This document shows positions 2,923-19,648 of a stretch of 32,000 bases of DNA, one piece after another. Below the pieces are notes generated by a model. It did not search any database. It was not told the origin of the DNA and saw only the letters and a list, made by a program, of their open reading frames with translations. The position numbers and the translations under genes were made by a program. The stretch's first letter is position 1, and each line of letters starts with the position of its first letter. Location of the stretch: positions 4,620,001-4,652,000 of the forward strand of contig LT962688.1 of NCBI GenBank assembly GCA_900234795.1, given 5' to 3'. This DNA comes from Methylorubrum extorquens (lineage in GTDB: Bacteria; Pseudomonadota; Alphaproteobacteria; Rhizobiales; Beijerinckiaceae).

Positions 2923-3110
2923 CACTTCGGATCGACCTTGATGCCGATGGGGTTGCGGGTCCGGAGTGGAAGCATCGAGCCGCGAGAGCATGGCGTCTCA
3001 TCCTTCGGAAGACAAGGCAGCCCGCACTCCGGCGTCCCGGCTCTCCCCGCGGAATCCGCACGAGAACATGCGGATCTTCGGTTTCCGGCCCGAAATGTTG
3101 ACCTCTGGCA

Positions 3111-3124
3111 TCTGGTATGCCAGA
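3111..3124. promoter_or_regulatory. Candidate GntR/FadR-type operator, site A (TCTGGTATGCCAGA), in the gntR-frc divergent intergenic region
   Basis: Near-palindrome TCTGG-N4-CCAGA. It overlaps a second perfect inverted repeat, GGCAT-N5-ATGCC (3107-3121). The 14-mer is identical to site B. Confidence 0.5.
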
Positions 3125-3326
3125 AGAAAACCGGGGAGTCGATGCCGGCGGCATTCGCCGGGTGCAGGGCAGCCTCGCTCATGGTGCCCTGAGCTGCGCT
3201 CACGTCGCGCATGCCAGCCGTACCGGAAGCCCAAGACCGGCACGGAACCCTACGGGCGCATACGGCCGACGCCATCGGCCGATCAGCGCCTGGCAACATG
3301 CCACTCTCCTGGGGAGGAGACCTGCG

Positions 3327-4616
3327 ATGAGCAAGGCACCGGGCAAGGCCCTCGAGGGCGTTCGCATCCTCGATTTCACCCATGTTCAATCGGGGCCGAC
3401 CTGCACGCAATTGCTCGCGTGGTTCGGGGCCGACGTCATCAAGGTCGAGCGGCCGGGTGCGGGCGACGCGACGCGTCAGCAGCTTCAGGACCTCCCCGGC
3501 GTGGACAGCCTCTATTTCACGATGCTGAACCACAACAAGCGTTCGATTACGCTCGACGGCAAGAACCCCAAGGGCAACGCGATCCTCTGGCGGCTCATCG
3601 CCGAGTGCGATGTGCTGGTCGAGAACTTCGCCCCCGGTGCGCTCGATCGCATGGGGCTGACCTGGGAGAAACTGCAGGCCGCCAATCCGGGCCTGATCCT
3701 GGCCTCGGTGAAGGGCTTCGGGCCCGGCCGCTACCAGGATTGCAAGGTCTACGAGAACGTCGCCCAATGCGTCGGCGGCGCGGCCTCCACCACCGGCTGG
3801 CGCGACGGCGTGCCGATGGTGTCGGGGGCGCAGATCGGCGATTCCGGCACCGGCCTGCATCTGGCGCTCGGCATCGTCACGGCCCTCTACCAGCGCACCC
3901 AGACCGGGCAGGGCCAGCGCGTCGATTGTGCCATGCAGGATGGGGTGCTCAACCTCTGCCGGGTGAAGCTGCGCGACCAGCAGCGCCTCGCCCACGGCCC
4001 GCTGATGGAATACAGCCAGTACGGCGAGGGCGTCCCCTTCGGCGAGGCGGTGCCGCGGGCCGGCAACGATTCCGGCGGGGGGCAGCCCGGCCGCATCCTG
4101 AAGTGCAAGGGCTGGGAGCAGGATCCCAACGCCTACATCTACTTCATCACGCAGGGCGCGGTTTGGGGACCGATCTGCGACATCATCGGCGAGCCGGACT
4201 GGAAGACCGATCCGGCCTACGCGACGCCGAAAGCCCGCTTGCCGCATCTCAACGAGATCTTCACGCGCATCGAAGCGTGGACGATGAAGCACGACAAACT
4301 CGAGGCGATGGAGATCCTCAACGCCTACGAGATCCCGTGTGGACCGATCCTGTCGATGCGGGAGATCGCCGAGGATCCGATGCTGCGGGCGAACGGCACG
4401 GTCGTCGAGGTCGAGCACCCGACCCGCGGCGCCTATCTAACGGTGGGCAACCCGATCAAGCTGTCGGCGAGCCCCACCGAGATCACCCGCGCGCCGCTGC
4501 TCGGCGAGCATACCGACGAGATCCTGCGCGAGGTGCTGGGCTGCACCGATACGGAAATCAGCGACATCCTCGGTTCGGGCGCGGTGGGCGGCGTCCACCG
4601 CATCGCCGCGGAGTAG
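3327..4616 (+). CDS. frc: Formyl-CoA:oxalate CoA-transferase, paralogue 1 (class III CoA-transferase)
   Basis: 429 aa. N-terminus [36 protein letters not shown], catalytic-Asp context IGDSGTG, Gly loop [35 protein letters not shown] at 3311-3320 precedes ATG 3327. The ORF-track start at 3117 is an upstream extension. Confidence 0.95.
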
Positions 4617-4669
4617 CACACGGCACTATTCTGCCGAACACCAGAGGAGCTGGAACTTGATTTCCTTCT

Positions 4670-4683
4670 TCTGGTATGCCAGA
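4670..4683. promoter_or_regulatory. Candidate GntR/FadR-type operator, site B (TCTGGTATGCCAGA)
   Basis: Same 14-mer as site A. It also forms TGGTAT-N5-ATACCA (4672-4688). It lies 75-88 nt upstream of the small ORF start at 4758. Confidence 0.5.
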
Positions 4684-4757
4684 TACCAATGCAGACAGGC
4701 GAGACCCGATACGGCGGCGTTGCGCACCGTTCGGGCCGGCGACCGGAGGATACGGTG

Positions 4758-4982
4758 ATGGCCGAAAACGTCTCTGATCACGCCGCGGACCGCGCTCTGG
4801 CGGATCTCGTGGACGCGTTCGGTCACTACTCCGATGCCGAGATGCAGGCCTTTCTCGATGCGACGCCGTTCGAGGCCGAGATGCGCTGCGGAGTCTCGCC
4901 CGCCAAACCGGTCGAATCCGAATGGCTGGCTGCCGCGGGATTTGCTGCCGGCGAGATCGTGATTCAGGCGGCGCGGGCGTAG
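4758..4982 (+). CDS. Hypothetical small acidic protein (74 aa)
   Basis: RBS GGAGG about 8 nt upstream of ATG 4758. GC3 about 76%, lower than neighbouring genes. No recognisable domain. Operator-like site B lies upstream. The 3' end overlaps the convergent small ORF by 19 nt. Confidence 0.4.
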   Translation: MAENVSDHAADRALADLVDAFGHYSDAEMQAFLDATPFEAEMRCGVSPAKPVESEWLAAAGFAAGEIVIQAARA

Positions 4983-5131
4983 CGGTCGGCGGTCTCCAGC
5001 GCCTCGGTGCCGCGGCCCTTCGGGGCATCCTGGGCGGCGCTCGAGACGGTCAGCCGGTCAGCCAGCTTGACGACGAACAGAGCCTGCACGGCGACGAGGA
5101 AAACGAGCGCGGCGAGCCAAGTGGCGAGCAT
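4964..5131 (-). CDS. Hypothetical small membrane protein (55 aa, one N-terminal TM helix); below the length cut-off of the ORF track
   Basis: My translation: MLATWLAALVFLVAVQALFVVKLADRLTVSSAAQDAPKGRGTEALETADRYARAA. GC3 about 91% (50 of 55 codons end in G/C). RBS GGAGA 5 nt upstream of ATG (5131). Operator-like site C lies 76-89 nt upstream. Confidence 0.55.
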   Translation of the reverse strand: MLATWLAALVFLVAVQALFVVKLADRLTVSSAAQDAPKGRGTEALETADRYARAA

Positions 5132-5206
5132 GATAGTCTCCGTCGGTGCGGACTATGGTGCGGTGCGAACGAATCCGAGATAGGCCGCGCGTTTTGGGAT
5201 ATGAAG

Positions 5207-5220
5207 TACAAAATACCAGA
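5207..5220 (-). promoter_or_regulatory. Candidate operator, site C (minus strand TCTGGTATTTTGTA)
   Basis: The left half-site is identical to sites A, B, E and G. The right half resembles site E (TCTGGTATATTGTA). Located upstream of the 55-aa membrane protein ORF. Confidence 0.35.
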
Positions 5221-5350
5221 TACGCGCATGCGTCACGTGCATGTGAGTGGCGCGCCGTGATCTGACGATGTGCGAATCCGGCTGCAATCCCTGCGGCCGA
5301 CGACGGTGTAACAGACGCAACTCGATGTCGCACCGCAGCATGGCTGCGGT

Positions 5351-7207
5351 TCAGGAGTTCGCCCGGCCGACCTCCGGACCCCATGCGCCGAGGGTCGAGG
5401 TTTCGTCCGGGCAGAGAACCTCGTCGAGCGGCGCGATGCTCTCAGTCTGCTCCGTCAGGCCCGTCGCTGCGAGCGCCCGCACGGTCCCGGCGTCGCGGCA
5501 TGCGGCGGCGAGACCCGCCGGGTCGAGGCCGACGAGACGACCGCTCTCGAAGCGCGCGAAGACCCGCCCCGATGCCCGGTCGGCGAAGCGCACCACCGAG
5601 ACCTGCCGCAAGGCCTCCCGAAGAAAACGCGCCTCGGCCTCCGGCGCGTCGGCGACGCCGCGATAGACATCGGCCGCCGCGCGGGCGCTGATATCGATCC
5701 GCCGGTAGCGCTCGATCGCCAGCAGGGCTTTGGCATCGAGGATCGTCATCGCGTCGTTCGTGCCGAAGGCGATGGTAAGCGGGCGCGCGCCCTTGGGCAC
5801 GCTGTTGTCGAGGAATTCGTAAGTGACCGGCCGGTCCCGGCGCAGCGCCCAGGTGAAGAACAACCGCGGCATGCCGGTGAAGGCCTCGACATTGTGCGCG
5901 AGCAGATCCTCGACCGCCTTGTAGCGCCCGAACTCCTCGCCCCGCTTCCAGGCCCGCTCCACGGTTTCCTCGGGCGGCGTGATCATGAACTGCAGGTAGA
6001 CGCGCTGACCGAACCGCGTGAGGAGCTGGCCCGCACCGTCGCTGCCGGCCTCCGTCGAGAAGCTGTCGAAGCGGAAGCGATCGATCAGCAGGTGCGAGAG
6101 GCGGCCGCCGGCTGCCTTGCGGGTGATGTAGCGGTCGAGCTTGGCATCGATGATCTCCACCTCGTGCCCGGTCAGCGGCCCGGCATAGCGGCGCGCTTCG
6201 CCCAAGCTGTCATAGTCCAGCAGGAACTTGCGCCAGACGTCGGGTGTGATGACGGCGAAGTCCTGCCATTGCGCGCCGATCCGTCCGGCGAGGTCGCGCT
6301 GATACGGACGAATCGTGCTCTTGCCCGAGGCCGAAGCGCCCTTGACGGTCATCACCACCGGCTGCGCTTGCGGCGCGGGCCGGTGGTAGCCCTGCGCCGC
6401 GGCGACCGCCTCGATCCAGGGCGCGATCAGCGCGCCGATCCGGTCGCTGCCGCAGCGGTTGGTGACGAGGATGCTGGCAAGCCGCCGCAGCAGCGTGCGG
6501 TCGCGGATCAGCATGCCCTGGCGGGCGATGACGTGCCCGAACACCGTGCGCAGGGCCTCGCGGGCGGCGCTCTCCATGCTCTCGGGCTCGCTCGCGGACG
6601 CGCATCGTTCGTCGAGGCGGGCAAGGATGCGAGCCTGCCCGTCGCCGGCTGGAGAAGGGGAAGGGGAGGGCGGCTCGCGCGGGCCGAGGCGGCGGAGCCA
6701 TCCGGCCCAGCCGGAGATCGGTTCGGGCGGCGGCGCGGGCGCCTCGTCGAACAGGGCCGACAACTCGCATTCCAGCGCCGCATCGGCCTCGGCGCGGACC
6801 GCGTCCAGGGTCGCCGCGACCGCGTCGAGGCGGTGCATCACGCCCTCGCGCAGCAGCGTGCCGACGATGCGCCGGAAGTTCAGTCCGAGATCGGCATAGA
6901 CTTCGCCGACGGGGACCGAGATGTCGGCCATGACCCGGATCAGCACCTCGTGGACCGCGAGGCGCTCGGGCCGGAAGGGGGCGAGCTGCGTCGCGGGCAG
7001 GCCGCTGACATCGGACAGTTCGAGGATTTCGGAAAAGGGCAGGCGGACGTTCTCGGGCCGGAACACCGTCGCGAGCGGGCGCATCGCCCGCGGCAGGCCG
7101 GGTTCGAGGCCGGGATTCCAGGCGTGGAAGGCCGGCTCGTCCGCGCGGGCGGTGCCGGCGGCCTCGGCCGGAAACTTGCCAGAGAGGGGCGGCGCGGCGT
7201 CGCTCAT
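5351..7207 (-). CDS. Zeta-toxin-like / AAA_33-type P-loop kinase-domain protein with an uncharacterised ~290-aa N-terminal domain (618 aa)
   Basis: Walker A VKGASASGKST is followed by AVITPDVWRKFL and LLIDRFRF, which resemble zeta-toxin/UDP-GlcNAc-kinase-type P-loop kinases. Strong RBS GGGAGG 8 nt before ATG 7207. The ORF-track start at 7453 is an Arg/Ser-rich extension that overlaps the upstream gene. Confidence 0.7.
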   Translation of the reverse strand: MSDAAPPLSGKFPAEAAGTARADEPAFHAWNPGLEPGLPRAMRPLATVFRPENVRLPFSEILELSDVSGLPATQLAPFRPERLAVHEVLIRVMADISVPVGEVYADLGLNFRRIVGTLLREGVMHRLDAVAATLDAVRAEADAALECELSALFDEAPAPPPEPISGWAGWLRRLGPREPPSPSPSPAGDGQARILARLDERCASASEPESMESAAREALRTVFGHVIARQGMLIRDRTLLRRLASILVTNRCGSDRIGALIAPWIEAVAAAQGYHRPAPQAQPVVMTVKGASASGKSTIRPYQRDLAGRIGAQWQDFAVITPDVWRKFLLDYDSLGEARRYAGPLTGHEVEIIDAKLDRYITRKAAGGRLSHLLIDRFRFDSFSTEAGSDGAGQLLTRFGQRVYLQFMITPPEETVERAWKRGEEFGRYKAVEDLLAHNVEAFTGMPRLFFTWALRRDRPVTYEFLDNSVPKGARPLTIAFGTNDAMTILDAKALLAIERYRRIDISARAAADVYRGVADAPEAEARFLREALRQVSVVRFADRASGRVFARFESGRLVGLDPAGLAAACRDAGTVRALAATGLTEQTESIAPLDEVLCPDETSTLGAWGPEVGRANS

Positions 7208-7229
7208 CGCTCGCCCCTCCCGGTCTCGA

Positions 7230-7523
7230 TCAGGCGGCGGAGGCGTTCTCGATCGCCTCGAACCGGATCTGGTAGGCCTCGCCCCATAGGCTCGCCGCCC
7301 GCTCGTGCCACGCGGTGTCGAAGAACAGCTTGGCGCAGAACGAGCTGCGCCAGATGCACACCGCGATGATGCGCTCGTCCAGAACGCGGATGTGGCGGCT
7401 CTCCAGCCCGCCGGCGATGCCAAGACGGGGCAACATGTCGATGCTCGAAGCACCGAATTCGTTCTCGCCCGGGAAGACGATCGGGCATTCGATGACGGTC
7501 AGATGTTTCATCGGGTTTTCCAT
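7230..7523 (-). CDS. Hypothetical 97-aa protein, immediately upstream of and probably co-transcribed with the P-loop protein
   Basis: MENPMKHLTVIECPIVFPGENEF... with no recognisable domain. The stop lies 22 nt before the P-loop gene start. Alternative start at 7511 (MKH). Confidence 0.55.
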   Translation of the reverse strand: MENPMKHLTVIECPIVFPGENEFGASSIDMLPRLGIAGGLESRHIRVLDERIIAVCIWRSSFCAKLFFDTAWHERAASLWGEAYQIRFEAIENASAA

Positions 7524-7677
7524 GGCGGACGCCTTTTCTCGGACTCGTCTTCCGACCTGTTCCGGATCGTTCTCGCACAACGCTCGGTGAACGGTGCCTG
7601 CTCCCGGCAGGCATGAATCCGTAACGAGATGCGTCGTGTCCGGCGCTCCATTTGCGCTCACTGTGAGCCGTGCGCCT

Positions 7678-8118
7678 TCACGTATGCGGCAATGCCGGCG
7701 GGTTCGTCGCCCGTGCTTGGCCAATATCCTGGCCGACTCCTTGGCCAGCGCAGTCCCAGATACTCAGGATCGCGCTGATGCGGCAGGATTCCATCAGGGC
7801 GATGTGATCGACCTTCCGCTCGCAGAAGGTCTTCAGCCGCTCCTGCGCCGAGGCGCCGACATCGACTGCGGGAAAGTCGTGATCGGTGATGAGCCAGACG
7901 CTGCGGTTGTAGATTTCGGGGCCCTCGGTCGCCACCGCGCGGAAGATGTCGCGCTGGGTCAGCAGACCCGTCACCGTGGCGTCGGCATCGCCCTCGACGA
8001 CGACGAGCGCGCCCGTTCCCGGCTCGGCGAGGAGTTGGGCCGCCTCGGCCACGGATCGGTCCCGGTGGATGGTGCGGACGCCACCGGCATCCGGCTCACG
8101 GCGCATCGTTCCAAACAC
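7678..8118 (-). CDS. CBS-pair domain protein (146 aa)
   Basis: Two CBS motifs (VRTIHRDRSVAEAAQLLAEPGTGALVVVEGD...GLLTQRDIFRAV, and a second around FPAVDVGASAQERLKTFCERKVDHIALME). Start assigned to GTG 8118, preceded by RBS GGAGGAG (complement of 8123-8129). The ORF-track start at 8241 adds an Arg-rich extension. Confidence 0.7.
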   Translation of the reverse strand: MFGTMRREPDAGGVRTIHRDRSVAEAAQLLAEPGTGALVVVEGDADATVTGLLTQRDIFRAVATEGPEIYNRSVWLITDHDFPAVDVGASAQERLKTFCERKVDHIALMESCRISAILSIWDCAGQGVGQDIGQARATNPPALPHT

Positions 8119-8168
8119 GGCGCTCCTCCATCGGCATGCCTCTCGGACGGGGCCGCCTTGGACTGCAG

Positions 8169-8182
8169 GCTGGTATACAGCA
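8169..8182. promoter_or_regulatory. Candidate operator, site D (GCTGGTATACAGCA; also GGTAT-N5-ATACC, 8172-8186)
   Basis: CTGGTAT core with a degenerate right half. Located 51-64 nt upstream of the CBS gene start. Confidence 0.35.
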
Positions 8183-8659
8183 TACCTATTGTCAATCCTG
8201 CGTTTTGAATTATGGTGCCGCCGTCTGGGCGGGATTGGCAAGATTGAGCCGCCAAAATCGATCCGCTTAGACGTCCTCCGTTCGGCCGGTGCGGCATGAT
8301 CCGAGGCAGGTCCTGCCCCCTGATCCAGGGCTGCACGAATGCTTCGCGCTCGTCCTCGTAGGGTGTCCCCGGGAACCGGCAGAGCTCATCCGCGGCGGTG
8401 CCTTTCGGCTTCGTCAGCGCATTCTGACGAGGTGGCAGTCGGTTCGTCGAAACTCGGCGCGTTGAAACGAGGGTCCTGATCCGCCGATCCGATGTGATCG
8501 AGTTGGATGCGACTTCAAGAATTCACCGGACGAACGCGATGGTCTGCTCACGCAGTCATTCCGCGTCAGCGAATATTTAAAGTCATATTCAAAAAAATAA
8601 TCGAGAAATTGAGCGACCAAAAAGCTCGGAAAAATCGAGCGTACACTGGAGATACGTCC

Positions 8660-9970
8660 ATGACCCAACCTACGACAACATACGTTCCACCACCGACGAG
8701 CCGATGGCTGCAATTGGTGTTCGGCATCGTCTGCATGTGCATGATCGCCAACATGCAGTACGGCTGGACGTTCTTCGTCAACCCGATGCAGGAACGGCAC
8801 GGCTGGGACCGCGCCGCGATCCAAGTCGCCTTCACCCTGTTCGTTCTCACCGAGACCTGGCTGGTGCCGATCGAGGGCTGGTTCGTCGACAAGTACGGCC
8901 CGCGGGCCGTGACGCTCGTCGGCGGCCTGTTGTGCGGGCTGGCCTGGGTGATCAACGCCTACGCCGACACGCTCTGGCTGCTCTATGTCGGGGCGGCCGT
9001 TGGCGGCACCGGTGCGGGCGCGGTCTACGGTACCTGCGTCGGCAACTCGCTGAAGTGGTTCCCCGACCGGCGCGGTCTGGCCGCCGGCCTCACCGCCATG
9101 GGCTTCGGCGCGGGCTCGGCACTCACCGTCGTGCCGATCCAGGCGGTGATCCACCATTACGGCTACGAGGCCGCCTTCTTCTGGTTCGGGATCGGCCAGG
9201 GCCTGATCGTGATGCTGATCGCCCTGTTCCTCGTCGCGCCGAAGAAGGGGCAGGTGCCCGAGATCGCCCGCGTCAGCCAGAGCCGGCGTGACTTCACGCC
9301 CGGCGAGATGGTGCGCACCCCGATCTTCTGGGTGATGTACGCGATGTTCGTGATGATGGCGGCCGGCGGCCTGATGGCCACCGCCCAGCTCGGCCCCATC
9401 GCCAAGGACTTCCATATCGCCGACGTGCCGGTGAGCCTGCTGGGGATCACCCTGCCGGCGCTGACCTTCGCCGCCACGATCGACCGGGTGCTCAACGGCG
9501 TGACGCGCCCGCTCTTCGGCTGGATCTCTGACCATATCGGCCGTGAGAACACGATGTTCCTCTCCTTCGGCATCGAGGGCGTGGGCATCTACCTGCTGAG
9601 CCAGTTCGGCCAGGACCCGATCCTGTTCGTGATCCTCACCGGTCTGGTGTTCTTCGCCTGGGGCGAGATCTACTCGCTGTTCCCGGCGACCTGCGGCGAC
9701 ACCTTCGGCTCGAAATACGCCGCCACCAATGCCGGCCTGCTCTACACGGCCAAGGGCACGGCGGCGCTGATCGTGCCCTATACCAGCATCCTCACGACGA
9801 TGACGGGGAGCTGGCACGCGGTGTTCCTGGCGGCCGCCGCGCTCAACATCCTCGCGGCGCTGATGGCGATCTTCGTCCTCAAGCCGATGCGGCAGGCCTA
9901 CACGCGGCAGGAGTCGACCGTCTTGGAGGCCAACTTGGAGGCCAAGCCGAAGACGGTCTCCGCCCACTGA
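8660..9970 (+). CDS. oxlT: MFS transporter, oxalate:formate antiporter (OFA) family, paralogue 1
   Basis: 436 aa, 12-TM MFS pattern. WLQLVFGIVCMCMIANMQYGWTFFVNP and GDTFGSKYAATNAGLLYTAKG. ATG 8660 with upstream GGAGA. About 60% identical by eye to the downstream paralogue. Confidence 0.9.
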   Translation: MTQPTTTYVPPPTSRWLQLVFGIVCMCMIANMQYGWTFFVNPMQERHGWDRAAIQVAFTLFVLTETWLVPIEGWFVDKYGPRAVTLVGGLLCGLAWVINAYADTLWLLYVGAAVGGTGAGAVYGTCVGNSLKWFPDRRGLAAGLTAMGFGAGSALTVVPIQAVIHHYGYEAAFFWFGIGQGLIVMLIALFLVAPKKGQVPEIARVSQSRRDFTPGEMVRTPIFWVMYAMFVMMAAGGLMATAQLGPIAKDFHIADVPVSLLGITLPALTFAATIDRVLNGVTRPLFGWISDHIGRENTMFLSFGIEGVGIYLLSQFGQDPILFVILTGLVFFAWGEIYSLFPATCGDTFGSKYAATNAGLLYTAKGTAALIVPYTSILTTMTGSWHAVFLAAAALNILAALMAIFVLKPMRQAYTRQESTVLEANLEAKPKTVSAH

Positions 9971-10004: not shown

Positions 10005-10155
10005 CGAAGAATGTCGGCGCGTGCCGGGCTCAGACGCCCGGTGCGCGCCGACGCGTTTTTCCGATCCCGACGCCGTGCATTCTTTGACCTGCTCCCGCCG
10101 ACGCGGTCGCTCCGGTGTGCCGGGTTGCCGCACCGCCACGCTTGGACTTTGCTGC

Positions 10156-10169
10156 TCTGGTATATTGTA
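10156..10169. promoter_or_regulatory. Candidate operator, site E (TCTGGTATATTGTA; also GGTAT-N5-ATGCC)
   Basis: Located 67-80 nt upstream of the oxlT paralogue 2 ATG (10236). Shares the TCTGGTAT core. Confidence 0.4.
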
Positions 10170-10235
10170 TGCCTAGCATCATTGTGCATGATGCGGCGCC
10201 AGGGGAGCACGAGAAACGTTCAGGGAGAGAACCGG

Positions 10236-11561
10236 ATGGTACACCAACCGGCAGAGCAACACGTGCCACTCCAGGCGCCTCCGGATGCGCCTTCCGCCAA
10301 GTGGTGGCAACTCGCCTTCGGCGTGCTCTGCATGGCCATGATCGCCAACCTTCAGTACGGCTGGACGCTCTTCGTCGATCCGATCGATGCGCAGCACCAA
10401 TGGGGGCGCACGGCGATCCAGTTCGCCTTCACGATTTTCGTCGCCACCGAAACCTGGCTGGTTCCGATCGAGACGTGGTTCGTCGATCGCTACGGGCCGA
10501 GCATCGTGGTGGGCTTCGGCGGCGTCATGATCGCCTTGTCCTGGACCTTGAACGCCTACGCCGATTCGCTTTCCCTGCTCTACGCCGCGGCGGTGATCGG
10601 CGGGATCGGCGCTGGCTCGGTCTACGGCACCTGCGTCGGCAACGCCCTGAAGTGGTTCCCGGATCGCCGCGGCCTGGCGGCGGGCGCGACGGCGGCGGGC
10701 TTCGGCGCGGGAGCGGCGGCCACCGTGGTGCCGATCGCCCACATGATCGCCGCGAGCGGCTACCAGAAGGCCTTCCTCGTCTTCGGGCTCGGACAGGGAT
10801 TAGTCGTCGTCCTGCTGTCCTTCCTGCTGCGCAAGCCGTCGGTCGCCGTGCCGATCCGGCGCAAGAACCTGCGCCTGCCCCAGACCAAGATCGACCGCAG
10901 CCCGAAGGAAGCGGTGCGCACCCCCGTGTTCTGGACGATGTACGCGATGTTCGTGATGGTCGCCTCCGGCGGCCTGATGGCGGCGGCGCAGATCGCGCCG
11001 ATCGCCCACGACTTCAAGGTCGCCGACGTGACGATGAACCTGTTCGGCCTGCAGATGGCCGCACTCACCCTGGCGATCTCGCTCGACCGCATCTTCGACG
11101 GGTTCGGCCGGCCCTTCTTCGGCTGGGTGTCCGACAACATCGGCCGCGAGAACACGATGTTCATCGCCTTCGTGATCGCCGCGACGGCCTGCATTCTGCT
11201 CCTCGGCTACGGGCGTAATCCGCTCGTCTTCGTTCTGTGCACGGCGATGTATTTCGGCGTGTTCGGGGAGATCTACTCGCTGTTCCCGGCCACCTGCGGC
11301 GACACGTTCGGCTCGAAATACGCCGCCAGCAACGCCGGCCTCCTCTATACGGCCAAGGGGACGGCGGCCTTCCTCGTCCCCTTGGCCAGCGTGCTGTCGG
11401 CCTCCTACGGCTGGTCGGCGGTGTTCGGCCTCATCATCGGGCTGAACATCCTGGCCGCGGCGCTGGCGGTCTTCGTGCTGAAGCCGATGCGGCGGCGCTA
11501 CCTCGCGGCGGAGGCCGAGATCGCCGACGCGGCGGAGGCTCGCGCGGTGAAGCTGGCCTAA
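10236..11561 (+). CDS. oxlT: MFS transporter, oxalate:formate antiporter (OFA) family, paralogue 2
   Basis: 441 aa. WWQLAFGVLCMAMIANLQYGWTLFVDP and GDTFGSKYAASNAGLLYTAKG. RBS GGGAGAG precedes ATG 10236. Confidence 0.9.
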   Translation: MVHQPAEQHVPLQAPPDAPSAKWWQLAFGVLCMAMIANLQYGWTLFVDPIDAQHQWGRTAIQFAFTIFVATETWLVPIETWFVDRYGPSIVVGFGGVMIALSWTLNAYADSLSLLYAAAVIGGIGAGSVYGTCVGNALKWFPDRRGLAAGATAAGFGAGAAATVVPIAHMIAASGYQKAFLVFGLGQGLVVVLLSFLLRKPSVAVPIRRKNLRLPQTKIDRSPKEAVRTPVFWTMYAMFVMVASGGLMAAAQIAPIAHDFKVADVTMNLFGLQMAALTLAISLDRIFDGFGRPFFGWVSDNIGRENTMFIAFVIAATACILLLGYGRNPLVFVLCTAMYFGVFGEIYSLFPATCGDTFGSKYAASNAGLLYTAKGTAAFLVPLASVLSASYGWSAVFGLIIGLNILAAALAVFVLKPMRRRYLAAEAEIADAAEARAVKLA

Positions 11562-11768: not shown

Positions 11769-11859
11769 CGGCAGATTGCTGAGTTGCGATCTAAACCTAT
11801 GTTTCATTTCTAATCATTGTGAGAAGGAAGTCTCCCATCGTCATCGGGAGATTCGCAGG

Positions 11860-14205
11860 GTGTCGGACTTCACTTTTCACCGTGTCGGCCGGCTTGTGAC
11901 GGCCCTGGTCTTGATGGCGGTGCCCGGTTCGTCGTTCGCGCAGGTCGCCATCGGCAACGAACCGGACCCGCTCGTGGACAACCTCCGGGTCGGGCCCAAC
12001 GCCTCCGTGGTGGGAATGTGGTCGCCGGTGAAGGGCTGGCCGCTGGTCGGCATCCACGCGACGCTGATGCCCTCCGGCACCGTCATGACATACGGCACCG
12101 CCCTCGGCGGGGACGTGCATGACGGGCGCACCTTCGACCTGTGGGACCCGGCCCGGGGCCTCGACGATCCCGCCGCGCACTACACCCTGCCGAACGCGCA
12201 GTTCATCGACAGCTTCTGCAGCGCAGCCGCCTTCCTCAAGACGGGCGCGATGCTGATCTCCGGCGGCAGTGCCGTGAGCAACAATTACTCGTCGCGGGCC
12301 AGCACCCTGTTCGACCCGAAGACCGCGACGCCGACGGCCGCCGCCTCGCAGCTCGCGTATCAGCGCTGGTACGCCTCGATGCTGACCCTGACGGATGGCC
12401 GCATCCTCATTACGGGCGGCGGCGCTCCCTACGTCGTGAACGCCTTCAGGGGGCCTGCCACCGCGATCGCCCAGGGCGACGTCTCGATGACGCCGGAAAT
12501 CTACACGCCCGGCGCCGGCTGGAGCACGCTGCCCGGTGCGACCAGTCGCGACGCGTTCGGGCCCGACTTCAATCGGTGGTGGTATCCGCGGATGTGGGTT
12601 GCGCCGAACGGCCGGGTCTTCGGGATCTCGGCCGATAAGATGTGGTCGCTCGATCCGAACGGCCGCGGCGCCACCAGAACGCTCGGCAACTTCAAGACCG
12701 GCTTCAATGCCTTCCGGCGACCGAATACCGGCCCGACCTCGACGGCGGCGATGTTCGATGTCGGGCGGATCCTGCAGGTAGGCGGCAACGGGGCCTCGAA
12801 CGAGCATGCCACGCCCTCGAGCGCGGCCGCGACGGTGATCGACATCCGCGGCGCGGCACCCGTCCTCACCGAGGTGGCGCCGATGGCCAACCCGCGGCAA
12901 TGGGCGAACTCGACAATCCTCCCCGACGGCACGGTCGCCGTCACCGGCGGCACCCGCTTTGCCGACAATGCGGGCGCCGACGCCGTCTACCCGGCCGAGC
13001 TCTGGGATCCCCGCACCGGCCGCTGGAAAACGGGCGCGAGCGCAGCCACCTATCGCGGCTACCACTCGGCGGCGGTGCTCCTGCCCAACGCCACCGTTCT
13101 GGTGACCGGCGGGGGCGTTCCCGGACCGGTCACGAACTTCAACGCGGAGATCTACTATCCGCCCTACCTGTTCAGGGCGGACAACGGCCGGCAGGTGCTC
13201 GCGCCGCGTCCGCGTGTTGCCAGCGTCGATGCCAAGACCATCGACTACGGCGCGCGGCTGACGGTCTCGCTCGCGGGCGACGACAGCATTTCCAGGGTCG
13301 CCCTCGTCGCCCTCGGGACGGCGACGCACAGCTTCGACAGCAGCCAGCGCTACATCCCGGCAGCCTTCTCCCAGACCGGCCGGACGGTGTCGGTGGTGAT
13401 GCCCGGCAGCCCCAACATCGCTCCTCCGGGCTACTACATGGCCTTCCTCCTCGACGCGGCCGGAGTTCACTCGAACGGCATCATCGTCTCGATCGGCGGG
13501 ATGGCCGCGCCCGTCGCGGGGCCGGCCGGGAAGGGGCCGATCAAGGCGCAGATCGGCGAGCTTTCGAAGCGCGTCTCGCGCGGCCGCGATGGCACGACCG
13601 TTGTCGTGAACGCCCAGGCCGGGACGCTCTGGCGGCTGACGGGCGGCCAGACCGCCGCGCCGATCCCCGCTCCGAAGCCGATGACGGACGTGGCCGTCGT
13701 GACGGCCAACAGCATCTACGGTTTGGCCACCGATGGAAGCATCCTGCGCTACAACGGCAATGCGTGGAAGCAGGTCGGGCATGGCGGCCGGACGATCTCG
13801 GCCTCGGAGGACGGGACGGTCGCCATCACGAACATCGAGGACAACATCTACGTCAAGAACGCCGACGACGACGTGGAGGCCTGGAGCTACATGCCCGGCG
13901 CCGCGCTCCGGGTCGTGCCGATGAGCCGCCTTGCCTACTGGGCGATCGGGATGGACGGCAACGTCCACCGGATCGAGAAAAGCGGAAAATGGACGCAGGT
14001 CGGGGAGAGCGTCGGCGACCTCGCGACAGCCGGAGATGGCCGCATCGCCGTCACCAACAAGTTCACCAACGAGATCTGGACGAAGGCCGGCGACGACGTC
14101 ATCCGGAACTGGCAGCACAATCCGACGAAGGCCATCAGCTTGGCGGTCGCGAGAGGGGGAAGCCTCATCACGGTCGGCCCGGACGGTAACGTCTATCGGG
14201 AGTAG
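11860..14205 (+). CDS. Secreted copper-radical oxidase (glyoxal oxidase/galactose oxidase-like, kelch + DUF1929) fused to C-terminal tectonin-like beta-propeller repeats
   Basis: GTG 11860 is preceded by GGGAG. Signal peptide (M)SDFTFHRVGRLVTALVLMAVPGSSFAQV. Cu-radical oxidase motif set: FCSAAAF (Cys), RWYASM (Tyr), YRGYHSAAV (Tyr-His), THSFD (His). DUF1929 region AEIYYPPYLF...PPGYYMAFLL. C-terminal repeats of the type W-x-[IVL]-x-x-DG-x-[IV]-[YH]-R. Confidence 0.85.
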   Translation: MSDFTFHRVGRLVTALVLMAVPGSSFAQVAIGNEPDPLVDNLRVGPNASVVGMWSPVKGWPLVGIHATLMPSGTVMTYGTALGGDVHDGRTFDLWDPARGLDDPAAHYTLPNAQFIDSFCSAAAFLKTGAMLISGGSAVSNNYSSRASTLFDPKTATPTAAASQLAYQRWYASMLTLTDGRILITGGGAPYVVNAFRGPATAIAQGDVSMTPEIYTPGAGWSTLPGATSRDAFGPDFNRWWYPRMWVAPNGRVFGISADKMWSLDPNGRGATRTLGNFKTGFNAFRRPNTGPTSTAAMFDVGRILQVGGNGASNEHATPSSAAATVIDIRGAAPVLTEVAPMANPRQWANSTILPDGTVAVTGGTRFADNAGADAVYPAELWDPRTGRWKTGASAATYRGYHSAAVLLPNATVLVTGGGVPGPVTNFNAEIYYPPYLFRADNGRQVLAPRPRVASVDAKTIDYGARLTVSLAGDDSISRVALVALGTATHSFDSSQRYIPAAFSQTGRTVSVVMPGSPNIAPPGYYMAFLLDAAGVHSNGIIVSIGGMAAPVAGPAGKGPIKAQIGELSKRVSRGRDGTTVVVNAQAGTLWRLTGGQTAAPIPAPKPMTDVAVVTANSIYGLATDGSILRYNGNAWKQVGHGGRTISASEDGTVAITNIEDNIYVKNADDDVEAWSYMPGAALRVVPMSRLAYWAIGMDGNVHRIEKSGKWTQVGESVGDLATAGDGRIAVTNKFTNEIWTKAGDDVIRNWQHNPTKAISLAVARGGSLITVGPDGNVYRE

Positions 14206-14509: not shown

Positions 14510-14538
14510 TTGACCGGCCTGTTGGTATTTGGTATGCC
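14510..14538 (+). promoter_or_regulatory. Candidate sigma-70-type promoter of oxc (TTGACC-N17-TATGCC)
   Basis: TTGACC at 14510-14515, a 17-nt spacer, then TATGCC at 14533-14538. The -10 hexamer lies inside operator site F. Confidence 0.3.
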
Positions 14539-14541
14539 AGC
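14528..14541. promoter_or_regulatory. Candidate operator, site F (TTTGGTATGCCAGC), preceded by a second GGTAT at 14524-14528
   Basis: Matches sites A and B at 12 of 14 positions. Located 140 nt upstream of the oxc ATG. Confidence 0.45.
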
Positions 14542-14680
14542 TGTGTCGCAACAAGGCCGGCCGCCCGAGACCGGTCCGCACGCTGCGCGCGGCGCAGCAG
14601 CAGGCGCGAAACGAGCCCGGCCCGACGCCATCGGGCCCCGCGCCGGACAAGAGCATCCGCACCACAAGGGAGAACGCCGC

Positions 14681-16432
14681 ATGACCGTCCAGGCCCAGAA
14701 CATCGACGCGATCACCGCGGGCGCGATGCCCCACGAGGAGCCGGAGCTGACGGATGGCTTCCACCTCGTCATCGACGCGCTCAAGCTCAACGGCATCGAG
14801 ACGATCTACAACGTGCCCGGCATCCCGATCACCGATCTCGGCCGTCTGGCCCAGGCCGAGGGTCTGCGGGTCATCTCCTTCCGCCACGAGCAGAACGCGG
14901 GCAACGCCGCTGCGATCGCCGGCTTCCTCACCAAGAAGCCGGGCATCTGCCTCACCGTCTCGGCGCCGGGCTTCCTCAACGGCCTGACCGCGCTGGCCAA
15001 CGCCACCACCAACTGCTTCCCGATGATCCTGATCTCCGGCTCCTCCGAGCGCGAGATCGTCGATCTGCAGCAGGGCGACTACGAGGAGATGGACCAGCTC
15101 GCCATCGCCAAGCCGCTGTGCAAGGCCGCCTTCCGCGTGCTGCACGCCGCCGATATCGGCATCGGCGTGGCCCGCGCGATCCGCGCTGCCGTCTCCGGCC
15201 GGCCCGGCGGCGTCTATCTCGATCTGCCCGCCAAGCTCTTTTCGCAAGTCATCGATGCCGATCTCGGCGCGCGCTCGCTGGTCAAGGTGATCGATGCGGC
15301 CCCGGCCCAGCTCCCGGCCCCGGCCGCCATCGCCCGGGCGCTCGACGTGCTGAAGTCGGCCGAGCGTCCGCTCATCATCCTCGGCAAGGGCGCGGCCTAC
15401 GCCCAGGCCGACGAGGCGGTGCGTGCGCTCGTCGAGGAAAGCGGCATCCCCTACGTGCCGATGAGCATGGCCAAGGGCCTCCTGCCCGACACCCACCCGC
15501 TCTCGGCCGGTGCGGCCCGCTCCACCGCGCTCAAGGATTCCGACGTGGTGCTGCTGGTGGGCGCCCGCCTCAACTGGCTGCTCTCCCACGGCAAGGGCAA
15601 GACCTGGGGCGAGCCCGGCTCGAAGCGCTTCATCCAGATCGACATCGAGCCGCGCGAGATGGACTCGAACGTCGAGATCGTCGCGCCGGTGGTGGGCGAT
15701 ATCGGCTCCTGCGTCGAGGCGCTGCTCGACGGCATCCGCAAGGACTGGAAGGGCGCGCCCTCCAACTGGCTGGAGACGCTGCGGGGCAAGCGCGAGGCCA
15801 ACATCGCCAAGATGGCCCCGAAGCTGATGAAGAACTCCTCGCCGATGTGCTTCCACTCGGCCCTCGGGGCGCTCCGGACGGTCATCAAGGAGCGGCCCGA
15901 CGCGATCCTCGTCAACGAGGGTGCCAACACCCTCGATCTCGCCCGCGGCATCATCGACATGTACCAGCCGCGCAAGCGCCTGGACGTCGGCACCTGGGGC
16001 GTGATGGGCATCGGCATGGGCTTCGCCGTCGCGGCCGCCGTCGAGACCGGCAAGCCGGTGCTGGCCGTCGAGGGCGACTCGGCCTTCGGCTTCTCCGGCA
16101 TGGAGGTGGAGACCATCTGCCGCTACGAGCTGCCGGTCTGCATCGTCATCTTCAACAACAACGGCATCTATCGCGGCACCGACACCGATCCGACCGGCCG
16201 CGATCCGGGCACCACCGTCTTCGTCAAGAACTCCCGCTACGACAAGATGATGGAGGCTTTCGGCGGCGTCGGCGTGAACGTCACTACGCCGGACGAGCTG
16301 AAGCGGGCCGTCGATGAGGCGATGAATTCCGGCAAGCCGACTCTGATCAATGCGGAGATCGACCCGGCCGCCGGCAGCGAGAGCGGCAACATCGGCAGCC
16401 TCAACCCGCAGAGCACCTTGAAGAAGAAGTGA
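14681..16432 (+). CDS. oxc: Oxalyl-CoA decarboxylase (ThDP-dependent)
   Basis: 583 aa. [28 protein letters not shown], ThDP motif [43 protein letters not shown] precedes ATG 14681. The ORF-track start at 14483 is an extension. Confidence 0.95.
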
Positions 16433-16467: not shown

Positions 16468-16509
16468 GGACCGCGGTGCCCGAACTGGGCGCCGCGGTCC
16501 TTTTTTTTT
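16468..16509 (+). terminator. Rho-independent terminator of oxc
   Basis: GGACCGCGGTGCCC, loop GAAC, TGGGCGCCGCGGTCC (14-bp stem with one G-T pair), followed by T9 (16501-16509). Confidence 0.85.
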
Positions 16510-16528
16510 GTCCGGCAAGCCCTTCCGT

Positions 16529-16670
16529 CCCTCATGCTGAGGTGCGGAGCGAAGCGAACGCCTCGAAGCACGCACGACGAAAGCCCTGGGACAGCCTTTC
16601 CAGACACCGGGGAGGATCAGCGTTCCGGGTTGCTTCGAGGCCCGCCGTCGCGGGCACCTCAGCATGAGGG
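16529..16670. repeat. Nested inverted-repeat (REP/MITE-like) element
   Basis: Perfect 17-bp outer arms CCCTCATGCTGAGGTGC (16529-16545) and GCACCTCAGCATGAGGG (16654-16670). Inner 10-bp arms CCTCGAAGCA (16561-16570) and TGCTTCGAGG (16631-16640). No coding capacity. Confidence 0.6.
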
Positions 16671-16701
16671 GCGGCGTTGGGCTCCACCCGCGAGACGCCC
16701 C

Positions 16702-17421
16702 ATGTCATCCTCCGCCTTCGATCCGACGGTTGCCCTCGATCCCCGGCTCGCCGGCCGGCTCGCCTTCCTGCCGCGGCTGCCGGGTAAGCCGCCGCTGCCG
16801 CCGGGCCGCCATGCGCTCGGCCTGTTCGAGACCCGCGACGCGATGCTCCGCGTGCCCGAGCACATCGATCCACGCCTGCCGACGCCGCTCGTTGTCCTGT
16901 TCCATGGCGGCGGTGGCAGCGCCGAAAAGATCCTGCCGATGCTGGAGGCCCATGCCGACAAGCGCGGCTTCCTGCTGCTCGCGCCGCAATCGCTGCACCC
17001 GACCTGGGATCTCGTGATCGCCGGCAACGGGCCGGACCGCGAGCGGCTCGACCGGGCGCTCGCCGAGGTCGCAGATCGCTTCCTACTTGACCCAGGCCAT
17101 CTCGCTTTCGCGGGCCATTCGGACGGCGGCAGTTACGCGCTGTCCCTCGGGCTCACCAACGGTGACCGGGTCAGCCACCTGATCGTGTCGTCCGCCGGGT
17201 TCATGTCGGTCCAGGTGCAGGCGGGTGCGCCCAAAATCTTCCTGTCGCACGGCACCCGCGACGAGCAGATCCCGATCGACCGGAGCGCCCGCAACCACGC
17301 TCGGCTGCTTCGGGCGGCGGGCTACGACCTCACCTACGTCGAGTACGATGGCCCGCACGCCTACAATCCGGACGTGGTGGGCCAGGCCGTGGACTTCTTC
17401 CTGGGCGATTTCTTCGGTTAG
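16702..17421 (+). CDS. Alpha/beta hydrolase, phospholipase/carboxylesterase-type esterase
   Basis: 239 aa. Oxyanion region LVVLFHGGGGS, nucleophile elbow GHSDGG, late Asp/His (SHGTRDEQIP ... DGPHAY). ATG 16702. The ORF-track start at 16534 runs through the repeat element. Confidence 0.8.
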   Translation: MSSSAFDPTVALDPRLAGRLAFLPRLPGKPPLPPGRHALGLFETRDAMLRVPEHIDPRLPTPLVVLFHGGGGSAEKILPMLEAHADKRGFLLLAPQSLHPTWDLVIAGNGPDRERLDRALAEVADRFLLDPGHLAFAGHSDGGSYALSLGLTNGDRVSHLIVSSAGFMSVQVQAGAPKIFLSHGTRDEQIPIDRSARNHARLLRAAGYDLTYVEYDGPHAYNPDVVGQAVDFFLGDFFG

Positions 17422-17442
17422 GCGGCGCGGGCTTGTCGATAC

Positions 17443-17469: not shown

Positions 17470-17628
17470 CTTCAAAGACCCGGACAACGAAAAACCGGAC
17501 CGACGGAGTCGGCCCGGGAAAGTCATCGGAGGAGGAAGAAACCCGGGCGTCATGCCCGGTCATGCGCTCCCGGGGCGATGCCCCGTCCCGGGAGGATCAT
17601 GGCCGAAAGAGACTGGCCATCCTGTACG

Positions 17629-17652
17629 GGCAGCGCGGAGATCCGCGCTGCC
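17629..17652 (-). terminator. Terminator-like hairpin downstream of frc paralogue 2
   Basis: GGCAGCGCGGA-GA-TCCGCGCTGCC, 11-bp arms, 10 nt after the TAA stop (17662-17664). No U-tract. Confidence 0.4.
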
Positions 17653-17661
17653 GCTTCCCCT

Positions 17662-18912
17662 TTAGACCGCGCGCGACTCGTGCATCGCGGCGATCTGCTC
17701 GGGCGAGTAGCCGAGGCCCGCGAGGACCTCGTCGGTGTGCTCGCCCAGAAGCGGCGAAGCCTTGATGTCGACCTTCAGGTCCGAGAACTTGATCGGGGAA
17801 CCGACGGTCAGATACGAGCCGAGCTTGGGATGCGGCACCTCGACGATGGTGCCGCTGGCGCGCAGCGACGGATCGGCGGCGATTTCCTTCATCGACAGCA
17901 CCGGCGAGCACGGGATGTCGAACTTGCGCAGGATATCGACGGCCTCGAACTTGGTCTTGTCGGCCAGCCAATCCTCGATGATGGCGAAGATTTCGAAGAT
18001 CTTGTCCTGGCGGGCGCGGGGCGTGTTGTAGGCCGGATCGTCGATCCACTCCTCACGGCCGAGCGCCTTGCAGATCGGGGCCCAGGCGTGGCCCTGGATC
18101 GTGAAGTAGATGTAGGCGTTGGGGTCCGTCTGCCAGCCCTTGCACTTGAGCACCCAGCCCGGCTGGCCGCCGCCGCCCGCGTTGCCGCCGCGCGGCACCA
18201 CGTCCGTGAACTCGCCGTGCGGGTATTGCGGGTATTCCTCGAGGTAGCCGATGGCATCGAGACGCTGCTGGTCGCGCAGCTTCACGCGGCAGAGGTTGAT
18301 CACCGAATCCTGCATCGACACGGCGACCTTCTGGCCCTTGCCGGTCTTGGTCTTCTGGTGCAGCGCCGTGAGGATGCCGATGGCCAGATGCATGCCGGTG
18401 TTCGAGTCACCGAGCGCGGCGGCCGACACGGTGGGCGGGCCGTCCCAGAAGCCGGTGGTCGAGGCGGCACCGCCCGCGCACTGGGCCACGTTCTCGTAGA
18501 CCTTCAGATCTTCGTAGTGGTGCCCGTCGGAGAAGCCCTTCACCGAGGCGAGGATCATGCCCGGGTTGAGCTCCTGGATGCGGGCCCAGGTGAAGCCCAT
18601 GCGATCAAGCGCGCCGGGGCCGAAATTCTCGACCATCACGTCGGATTCTTGGATCAGCTTTTCCAGGACTTCCTTGCCCTGCGGGTTCTTGGTGTCCAGC
18701 GTCAGCGAACGCTTGTTGGAGTTGAGCATCGTGAAGTAGAGCGCATCCGCGTCCTCGACGTGGCGAAGCTGGTTGCGCGTCACGTCGCCCGAGCCCGGAC
18801 GCTCGACCTTGATCACGTCCGCCCCGAACCACGCGAGGAGCTGGGTGCAGGCGGGGCCCGCCTGGACGTGGGTGAAATCGATGATTCTGATCCCGTCGAG
18901 CGGCTGGGTCAT
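17662..18912 (-). CDS. frc: Formyl-CoA:oxalate CoA-transferase, paralogue 2
   Basis: 416 aa. [43 protein letters not shown], canonical Gly loop [36 protein letters not shown] precedes ATG 18912. About 65% identical by eye to paralogue 1. Confidence 0.95.
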
Positions 18913-19012
18913 CTCGGTCTTCTCCCTATTTCGACTTCGTTGTGGGTCGTTGTTGGAAAATCGAAAAATATTAAGGCCGGTAATATTGCTGAATGGCTCA
19001 GGCGCCCCGCCT

Positions 19013-19462
19013 TCAGGCGCAGACGAGGGTGCCCAAAGCCTCTTCCAGCTCCGCCACGCGGCGGCGCAGGGAGCGCTCTTCCTGAAAGCGCTCGGTCTCG
19101 TCGCGGATGACCGCGGCGATGCCGGTGACCTCGCCCGCCGCGCCGTGCAGCAGCGCGACGGTGAAGGCGATCGACAGGGCCCGGCCATCCTTGTGCAGGG
19201 CCGGAACCTTGAGCAGCGACGTGCCGTAGCGGGTCTCGCCCGTGCGCATCGTCTTGGCGTAGCCGTCCCAGTGGCGTCGGCGGTGACGCTCCGGGGTGAT
19301 GAGGTCGAGGCTCTGCCCGAGCGCCTCGGCTTCCGAGAAGCCGAAGATCCGCTCCGCGGCCGGATTCCAGACGACGATCCGTCCGTCCGCGTCGGAGATC
19401 ACCACCGCGTCACCGATCGCCGCGACGAGGCCGGACGTGTCGAAGGTCTGCGATTGGGCCAT
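19013..19462 (-). CDS. Stand-alone PAS-domain protein with short C-terminal coiled-coil-like tail
   Basis: 149 aa. PAS S-box-like [41 protein letters not shown] and [15 protein letters not shown]. No output domain. Confidence 0.8.
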
Positions 19463-19632
19463 CGGTTGCCCCCCTTCCGCCGGTTGCTAGCCCTGAGGCC
19501 GCGCTGTGAGCGGAGAGATGCGATGTCTGTCGAGGATGCCGCGTTCGGTCATGGCAGGCGTTGCCTCCTTGGCTTCCCGGGTCTCGGGCCTTCCGGATCG
19601 AGATCGCTCTTTCCGGTGGCTCGTCATTGGCA

Positions 19633-19648
19633 TCTGGTATACCAGATA
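19633..19648. promoter_or_regulatory. Candidate operator, site G: perfect 16-bp palindrome ATCTGGTATACCAGAT
   Basis: Perfect dyad containing TGGTATACCA, which fits the GntR/FadR-type T.GT..AC.A pattern. It lies in the divergent PAS(-frc)/osmC intergenic region, 81 nt before the osmC ATG and 171 nt before the PAS ATG. Confidence 0.5.

Follow-up and report, generated by a model that had tools for sequence, protein, structure and literature searches.

Introduction

Escherichia coli FadR is a dimeric repressor and activator with a winged helix-turn-helix GntR domain, and its CTGGT...ACCAG operator dyad (palindromic consensus TCTGGTnnnACCAGA) overlaps promoters. The FCD regulators GlcC, LldR, PdhR and CsiR repress catabolic or transport operons until the carboxylate substrate relieves repression, and have TGGT/ACCA-type operators. 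Oxalate from plants and fungi is both a major carbon source and a toxin of medical relevance. The regulation of the marker genes frc and oxc was called understudied in a 2024 review (PMC13409138). In our full-text literature search we found no description of an oxalate-specific GntR regulator and no transcription factor assigned to frc or oxc in Proteobacteria. Here we analyze a 32,000-nucleotide stretch of the Methylorubrum extorquens genome (contig LT962688.1, positions 4,620,001 to 4,652,000; hereafter the window), where genes for formyl-CoA transferase (frc), oxalyl-CoA decarboxylase (oxc) and oxalate/formate antiporter-like proteins (oxlT) occur together with seven copies of a palindromic motif and a gene for a GntR-superfamily protein of the FCD type. 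These seven sites are in all likelihood the operators of the adjacent regulator. The pair would constitute a candidate transcription factor with its regulon for bacterial oxalate catabolism, the first such within the literature searched.

The window regulator has the two-domain architecture common to GlcC, LldR, PdhR, CsiR and the protein of structure 7xp0; it differs from the first four in its predicted target pathway, oxalate via frc, oxc and oxlT. The FadR consensus comes close to the half-sites of the window, but these are 2 bp apart (TGGT-AT-ACCA) and not 3, the sites carry extra 7-bp direct repeats, and the C-terminal domain is FCD (PF07729) instead of the acyl-CoA-binding FadR_C. In its proposed mode of action the system resembles a repressor of the FadR subfamily. 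An operator of repeated units in place of a single dyad is known from E. coli NanR, an FCD-type GntR repressor of a catabolic regulon: several dimers bind cooperatively to (GGTATA)3, a 32-residue N-terminal extension mediates the cooperativity, and zinc, held by D172, H176, H222 and H244, is bridged to the carboxylate of the ligand (PMC8012715). The window unit TGGTAT includes GGTAT. In contrast to NanR, however, the window units keep a strict 7-bp period with direct and inverted orientations mixed, and the regulator has no extension of about 32 residues, its GntR domain beginning at about residue 18 (about 17 residues before it). Its score in the NCBIfam NanR model was 68 bits against a cutoff of 260.

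Seven sites in the window and their enrichment

A sequence-only reading had listed seven intergenic copies of the motif, and all seven were located in the sequence (sites A to G, Table 1). Two entries needed correction in part. The perfect 16-bp palindrome of site G, ATCTGGTATACCAGAT, exists but occupies 19632-19647 rather than 19633-19648. Site D does lie upstream of the CBS-domain gene, which is on the minus strand. The heptamer CTGGTAT, said to be over-represented, indeed occurred eight times in the window with 0.70 expected from dinucleotide shuffles, and none of 100 shuffles reached eight; the single coding copy that had been reported was found at 9780-9786 on the minus strand. Intergenic DNA alone (5,636 nucleotides) held seven copies with 0.13 expected, and TGGTATNCCA had five matches with 0.01 expected, a number reached in none of 500 shuffles. 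With a symmetrised position weight matrix the seven sites, all intergenic, took ranks 1 to 7 among all 14-mers of the 32 kb, a ranking that is partly circular because the matrix was trained on the same sites. The eighth match overlaps the oxlT2 start codon and is ambiguous. An independent repeat search recovered sites A, B, F and G as an 18-nucleotide family of four copies without longer common flanks.

Site A lies in the divergent gntR/frc1 region, 203 nucleotides from the frc1 start and 182 from the gntR start. The regulator gene that adjoins it had been described as the sole GntR/FCD gene of the window, and it was the only one among the open reading frames scanned. Site C is found 62-96 nucleotides 5' of the orf55 start.

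Conservation with the regulator in other genomes

Eighty loci with a regulator orthologue, identified by alignment, were retrieved from alpha- and betaproteobacterial GTDB genomes. The orthologues were 56 to 96% identical to the protein of the window: 74-96% in Methylorubrum and Methylobacterium, 61-65% in Ancylobacter and Xanthobacter, 56-59% in Pseudolabrys and other alphaproteobacterial metagenome-assembled genomes, and again 56-59% in Cupriavidus, Paraburkholderia, Trinickia and betaproteobacterial metagenome-assembled genomes. In 73 of these loci, tblastn placed an oxc, frc or oxlT homologue no more than 10 kb from the regulator.

We searched the loci for the 10-bp core TGGTATACCA with at most one mismatch, taking the 400 nucleotides 5' of oxc, frc and oxlT genes as upstream regions. 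Its density was 8.1 per 10 kb upstream of oxalate genes and 0.32 per 10 kb elsewhere, a 25-fold difference, and it was absent from coding DNA, with no match inside the mapped oxalate genes of the orthologous loci. Such a site was present in 52 of the 80 loci; those without a near-perfect core had recognisable variants, for example TCTGGCA TAATGTA TTACAGT. The motif stood 5' of oxc, frc and oxlT orthologues as far as Cupriavidus and Paraburkholderia, always with a GntR/FCD orthologue. The earlier suggestion that the core fits the T.GT..AC.A dyad of GntR/FadR operators was borne out: a TGGTAT/ATACCA core stands 5' of regulator and oxalate genes both in the window and in no fewer than 52 of the 80 loci. 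Core matches counted as elsewhere were mostly 5' of plausible targets, namely homologues of orf55, an HD_5 protein, an ADP-forming acyl-CoA synthetase, a SucC-like CoA ligase and a TctC solute receptor; the last three would fit a role in oxalate or dicarboxylate use. Six further loci were fetched via the PAS protein and thus independently of the regulator: 11 of 11 near-perfect sites there lay in the osmC/PAS spacer or 5' of oxc or MFS genes. What was observed comprises the sites and their enrichment, where they lie with respect to −35 elements, that they are conserved, and that they occur together with the regulator in two proteobacterial classes.

Individual sites could be followed as well. 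Site A is conserved in loci L001-L003 (e.g. gTTGACgtctggcatcTGGTATGCCAga). Site E is the same in M. rhodesianum from TGGTATATTGTATGCCTAG onward, the DNA further 5' being divergent. The form of site F, TTGGTA TTTGGTA TGCCA, recurs 5' of oxc in Methylobacterium, Ancylobacter and loci L081, L083, L084 and L086.

In Ancylobacter loci L023, L024, L036, L039 and L044 two paralogous regulator genes are neighbours. The oxlT/gntR spacer of these loci contains a longer palindrome, TGGTATGCAAAATTTTGCATACCA, some 150-190 nucleotides 5' of oxlT, and the standard array GTTGGTA TTTGGTA TGCCA stands 5' of the second paralogue and of oxc.

Array architecture

The operator is longer than the 14-bp dyad and consists of three or four 7-bp units (nnTGGTA nnTGGTA TACCAnn). 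Among the 218 flanks of 109 unique sites, 80 carried a direct repeat of TGGTA (match of 4/5 or better) exactly 7 bp out; the count was 0-2 at each of the other offsets tested, except for 16 at 14 bp. The two site classes proposed previously, with RCCAGA and WTTGTA right halves, are different registers of one array of 7-bp units and not two dyads. At sites D and E it is the third unit (TACCTAT and TGCCTAG, respectively) that provides the inverted half. Of the window sites, a regular expression for the triple unit recovered A, B, F and G alone, sites C, D and E being degenerate. In Pseudolabrys-type loci the standard site 5' of gntR-oxc-frc is a variant of the E form, TCTGGCA TATTGTA TACCAGT.

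Promoter position and probable sign of regulation

In gene orientation, TTGAC was found 15-16 nucleotides (19 cases) or 11 nucleotides (8 cases) 5' of the core start and almost never 3' of the core. This fixed offset places the array in the promoter spacer and −10 region. At site A the array directly follows a −35-like TTGACC. At sites F and G, TTGACC precedes the first array unit by 5 and 4 nucleotides (11-12 nucleotides before the central dyad) and a −10-like element, TATGCC or TATACC, lies within the array; the candidate promoter TTGACC-N17-TATGCC already noted at site F is correct, with its hexamers at 14510-14515 and 14533-14538. The −35 element of site G is on the minus strand (19663-19658) and oriented to PAS-frc2. 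Site D abuts ATTGTCAAT. On the minus strand this offers TTGACA (8195-8190) in the direction of the CBS gene, and on the plus strand TTGTCA-N16-TATGGT (8189-8216) in the direction of oxlT1. The −10 element of betaproteobacterial loci coincides with the third unit, TTGAC-N6-TGATATACCA-CA-TACGTT. Since the arrays lie mostly between or over the −35 and −10 elements, this geometry suggests repression by promoter occlusion, with autoregulation via site A.

Long stretches separate operator or promoter from the start codon at frc1 (about 200 nucleotides, 3125-3326), oxlT1 (about 440, 8217-8659) and oxc (about 140, 14542-14680); none of the three matched an Rfam family. A hairpin with a 7-bp stem, ATCCGCACGAGAACATGCGGAT, is found at 3054-3075 between site A and the start of gntR, probably within the leader of that gene. 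In the oxlT2 leader the palindrome GCATCATTGTGCATGATGC lies between site E and the start codon, at 10179-10197; it is identical in M. rhodesianum save for one loop base and could be a hairpin of the 5' untranslated region or a second protein site.

The regulator

The 227-residue regulator (N-terminus MENLSIKP) is 100% identical to an NCBI Methylorubrum extorquens entry. Pfam scores were 41.7 bits for GntR (cutoff 27) and 84.8 bits for FCD (cutoff 24.3). None of the named NCBIfam equivalogs (PhnR_burk, LldR, GlcC, PdhR, CsiR, NanR) reached its cutoff, the highest score being 118.7 bits for phnR_burk (cutoff 271.5). The closest solved structure was 7xp0 (E = 2.9e-14). H145, H189 and H211 were invariant in an alignment of 11 orthologues and correspond to the metal-ligand histidines in the alignment with 7xp0. 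Over the 80 principal orthologues the recognition helix, GVSRTP(I/V)REA(L/M/I/V), hardly varied, a few loci having I or A for the first V, and this near-invariance matches the conserved GTAT/ATAC core. Because the helix is essentially invariant, a test for co-variation of helix and half-site was uninformative.

Proposed mechanism and alternatives

We propose that the regulator binds in dimeric form, with probably at least two dimers cooperating, on the arrays of three or four 7-bp units (direct nnTGGTA repeats closed by inverted TACCAnn units) placed in or over the −35 and −10 elements of sigma-70-type promoters. Bound there, it would block RNA polymerase at frc1, oxlT1, oxlT2, oxc and PAS-frc2, and would also silence its own gene, the two small-protein genes, the operon of the CBS, 93-residue and kinase-like proteins and probably osmC-SnoaL. 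A small ligand in the histidine-rich, metal-type FCD pocket would then lower DNA affinity and derepress the regulon. Oxalate itself is the most likely ligand: this chelating dicarboxylate would be the most economical effector, since the equivalent zinc site of NanR contacts the carboxylate of its effector. Binder, repression, stoichiometry and effector are here inferred.

The arrangement would provide a specific, widely conserved candidate regulator of oxalate genes, a defined operator open to mutation, reporter fusions and use in an oxalate biosensor, and a set of conserved genes, functionally unknown, that would be under common control. The regulator would also join NanR as the second FCD-type GntR protein with a short-period repeat array, here predicted, in place of a single-dyad operator. 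A more speculative extension, which we regard as rather doubtful, is that the regulator is a metal-assisted oxalate sensor forming NanR-like higher-order complexes without the N-terminal extension, and that its conserved, uncharacterised targets are missing components of oxalate physiology in Proteobacteria. These would be the 55-residue membrane protein, the operon of the CBS, 93-residue and zeta-toxin-like kinase proteins, the stand-alone PAS protein (co-transcribed with frc2 in alpha- as well as betaproteobacteria), OsmC-SnoaL and an HD-domain protein; possible roles would be those of a transporter accessory subunit, a nucleotide or cofactor kinase switch, or protection from peroxide or acid stress.

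Several points weigh against the proposed mechanism. For M. extorquens, site counts, matrix ranking and shuffles cover 32 kb of the genome. A strict sigma-70 consensus scan of the region found one promoter only, at site D; the −10 assignments are therefore weak, and the promoter assignments rest on the fixed TTGAC offset. TTGGAC, 5' of site E, is not conserved in M. rhodesianum. The half-site is TGGTA in the alphaproteobacterial and TGATA in the betaproteobacterial loci, with no matching change in the recognition helix. Finally, an invariant Asn (N141) occupies the position of the Asp in the D-x3-H...H...H metal ligands of FCD regulators, as judged from the alignment with 7xp0, which makes metal dependence uncertain.

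The position of site D also bears on the sign of regulation. Its array lies just 5' of the candidate −35 element of oxlT1 and ends where this conserved element begins, like a class II activator site, and this position would suit activation as well. The arrays moreover overlie poor −10 elements. The regulator might thus bind the arrays but chiefly activate, in dependence on oxalate, or have a dual role. We consider this improbable, since in most oriented cases TTGAC stands 11-16 nucleotides 5' of the core, so that the array covers spacer and −10 element, and in the betaproteobacterial loci the third unit is the −10 element. FCD regulators of catabolic operons such as NanR are, furthermore, repressors relieved by substrate (PMC8012715).

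The unmatched half-site variation and the paired GntR paralogues of Ancylobacter, with the paralogue ambiguity they may bring, could also mean that the arrays are real oxalate operators bound by some other transcription factor encoded elsewhere, the GntR/FCD protein being merely a neighbour. This is slightly less probable still. Orthologue and motif co-occur beside oxalate genes in two classes and most of the 80 loci, the site is in many taxa directly 5' of a gntR-oxc-frc operon, and no further DNA-binding protein is conserved in these clusters. TGGT..ACCA dyads are, besides, typical for FadR-subfamily GntR proteins.

Very little speaks for the motif being a sigma-54 promoter (TGGCAC-N5-TTGC) instead of an operator. 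Sites A, E, F and G do read TGG(C/T)AT-N5-ATGCC in gene direction, equivalent to the −24/−12 pattern GG-N10-GC, a spacing that arises because two 7-bp units separate TGG and TGCC. Across the loci, however, GG-N10-GC was present in only 20 of 84 oriented sites, and the GC was found neither in B, C and D nor in the oxc sites of L081, L083, L084 and L086 nor in any Cupriavidus site; the clusters are without a sigma-54 activator gene, and the sigma-70-type TTGAC stands at a fixed distance. Just as remote is a role as RNA hairpins (attenuators or processing sites) or as copies of a dispersed repeat or miniature inverted-repeat transposable element without protein-specific function: A, E, F and G can fold (z-scores −1.7 to −4.3) but B and C did so no better than shuffles (−0.8 and +0.6), the sites lie mostly at or 5' of the predicted −10 element so that much of each would not be transcribed, no T run follows them, they matched no family in an Rfam scan of the window, the 7-bp direct-repeat period is a property of DNA-binding sites and not of stems, and copies confined to upstream regions of the oxalate cluster and sharing at most about 27 nucleotides without common flanks do not behave as dispersed or repetitive extragenic palindromic elements.

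Putative members of the regulon

The sequence-only reading had extended the regulon to two small proteins, a CBS operon and an OsmC/NTF2 pair. Phylogenetic footprints and conserved linkage back this extension, osmC being its weakest member.

When M. extorquens is compared with M. rhodesianum, sites B and C stand out as islands of identity with diverging flanks; in the site C stretch TGGGATATGAAGTACAAAATACCAGAT one position differs. B-like sites were found 68-78 nucleotides 5' of the orf74 homologues in L001-L003. In these loci tblastn matched this Methylorubrum-limited gene at 63-67% identity in the N-terminal half, with an in-frame 12-nucleotide indel. The orf74 product matched no family in Pfam or NCBIfam. 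A PAS-like fragment 3' of site B, considered because of a 27-nucleotide complementarity of 4689-4715 with the PAS gene, was dropped, as it equals many chance pairs in GC-rich DNA.

Homologues of orf55 occur in 13 Methylobacterium and Methylorubrum loci, with the start codon 54-69 nucleotides after the operator core. They form a family of about 50-55 residues with the motif Q.LL.VK.AD.LS, and the hydrophobic N-terminal stretch of orf55 is read as a single membrane helix. Family members in L005, L006, L008-L011, L013-L016, L018, L020 and L021 have a C-terminal GR(Y/F)AGIA-like motif. At the orf55 loci of many species TTGC or CTGC follows the core after 2-3 nucleotides, giving GG-N11-GC, one base off the sigma-54 spacing, and in several species the next gene encodes an HD_5-domain protein. 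In the window orf74 and orf55 are convergent and their 3' ends overlap by 19 nucleotides (4964-4982).

The CBS gene is the first of a three-gene operon on the minus strand (CBS, 93-residue and 618-residue proteins, 5351-8106), a cluster conserved beside oxalate genes. The 93-residue protein has homologues in 12 Methylobacterium loci and no family assignment. In the AlphaFold2 model of the 618-residue protein (predicted local distance difference test score 80.7) the N-terminal half is large and helical and is joined by a P-loop domain, the latter with 3q8x and 4z8v as best Foldseek matches (E ~1e-3) and nearest to the zeta toxin PezT, AvrRxo1 and archaeal adenylate kinases; the structure search gave a generic P-loop match only and no hint of the substrate. 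The site D block is conserved whole in three Methylorubrum species, the rest of the spacer is not. In the Methylobacterium loci L011-L013 and L017, CBS-proximal TTGACA-N9-core sites were found and oxlT has a site of its own.

Linkage of the PAS gene with frc2 and oxc is seen also in Xanthobacter, Cupriavidus and Trinickia. In six of six further Methylobacteriaceae loci osmC-SnoaL is divergent from PAS-frc2, with varying outer neighbours, and the osmC/PAS spacer, down to 170 nucleotides in length, contains a single palindromic array. The element CTTGAC(C/A)-N10-11-TCTGGTATACCAGATGCCAA at site G is retained in six other species. Of all assignments, control of osmC is the weakest, because the TTGACC of site G faces PAS-frc2. 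In the Methylobacteriaceae loci L081-L084 a gene for a TM_HPP-CBS membrane protein follows frc2 (at about 8035-9390); the window has none at the matching place.

Gene order and further features of the window

The window has a G+C content of 68%. Its features are collected in Table 1.

Table 1. Sites, genes and terminators of the oxalate cluster (positions within the window; arrays written in 7-bp units)
Feature	Position	Strand	Description or basis
Site A	3098-3124	+	TTGACC 3098-3103, then array TCTGGCA TCTGGTA TGCCAGA 3104-3124
Site B	4657-4690	+	TTGATT 4657-4662; array TCTGGTA TGCCAGA TACCAAT 4670-4690; 68 nucleotides before orf74
Site C	5193-5227	-	Towards orf55: GCGCGTA TCTGGTA TTTTGTA CTTCATA TCCCAAA; degenerate array
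Site D	8169-8216		Array GCTGGTA TACAGCA TACCTAT 8169-8189; abuts ATTGTCAAT
Site E	10156-10176	+	Array TCTGGTA TATTGTA TGCCTAG; 60 nucleotides before oxlT2 start
Site F	14510-14541	+	TTGACC 14510-14515; array GTTGGTA TTTGGTA TGCCAGC 14521-14541; 140 nucleotides before oxc
Site G	19626-19663	-	Array ATTGGCA TCTGGTA TACCAGA TACGAAT 19626-19653; includes palindrome 19632-19647
cobW	1006-2106	+	Pfam/NCBIfam scans
gntR/FCD regulator, 227 residues	2239-2922	-	Pfam GntR and FCD
frc1, formyl-CoA transferase (family III CoA-transferase)	3327-4616	+	Pfam CoA_transf_3, E = 2.5e-101
orf74	4758-4982	+	Small protein
orf55	4964-5131	-	Small protein
618-residue P-loop protein, zeta-toxin/AvrRxo1-like kinase domain	5351-7207	-	Structure model
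93-residue open reading frame	7233-7511	-	Homologues in 12 loci
CBS-domain protein	7678-8106	-	Pfam CBS 32.7 bits
oxlT1, MFS oxalate/formate antiporter-like	8660-9970	+	Pfam MFS_1
Strong terminator 3' of oxlT1	10012-10053		
oxlT2, oxlT1 paralogue	10236-11561	+	73-78% nucleotide identity to oxlT1
GlxA-like copper oxidase	11740-14205	+	Pfam/NCBIfam scans
oxc, oxalyl-CoA decarboxylase (thiamine diphosphate enzyme)	14681-16432	+	Pfam TPP_enzyme N, M and C domains
Terminator 3' of oxc	16468-16500		
Hydrolase	16534-17421	+	Pfam/NCBIfam scans
Terminator of PAS-frc2 operon	17517-17495		
frc2, second formyl-CoA transferase	17662-18912	-	PAS-frc2 operon 17662-19462
Stand-alone PAS protein	19013-19462	-	First gene of PAS-frc2 operon
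osmC-like	19729-20172	+	Pfam OsmC 47.8 bits
SnoaL/NTF2-like	20205-20573	+	SnoaL_2 26.7 bits, just below cutoff 27

The gene between oxlT2 and oxc encodes a radical copper oxidase that resembles GlxA/glyoxal oxidase and has kelch and tectonin domains. No operator was found 5' of this gene in the window, and M. rhodesianum does not have it at that position, oxc being directly 3' of oxlT2. A cobalamin riboswitch (Rfam RF00174, 119.9 bits, 22322-22530, plus strand), the only Rfam family found in the window, adjoins a TonB-dependent receptor gene (22637-24832) on its 5' side. The urease gamma and beta subunits are encoded by a single fused open reading frame on the minus strand (30728-31486; Pfam Urease_gamma and Urease_beta), next to ureC (29000-30712).

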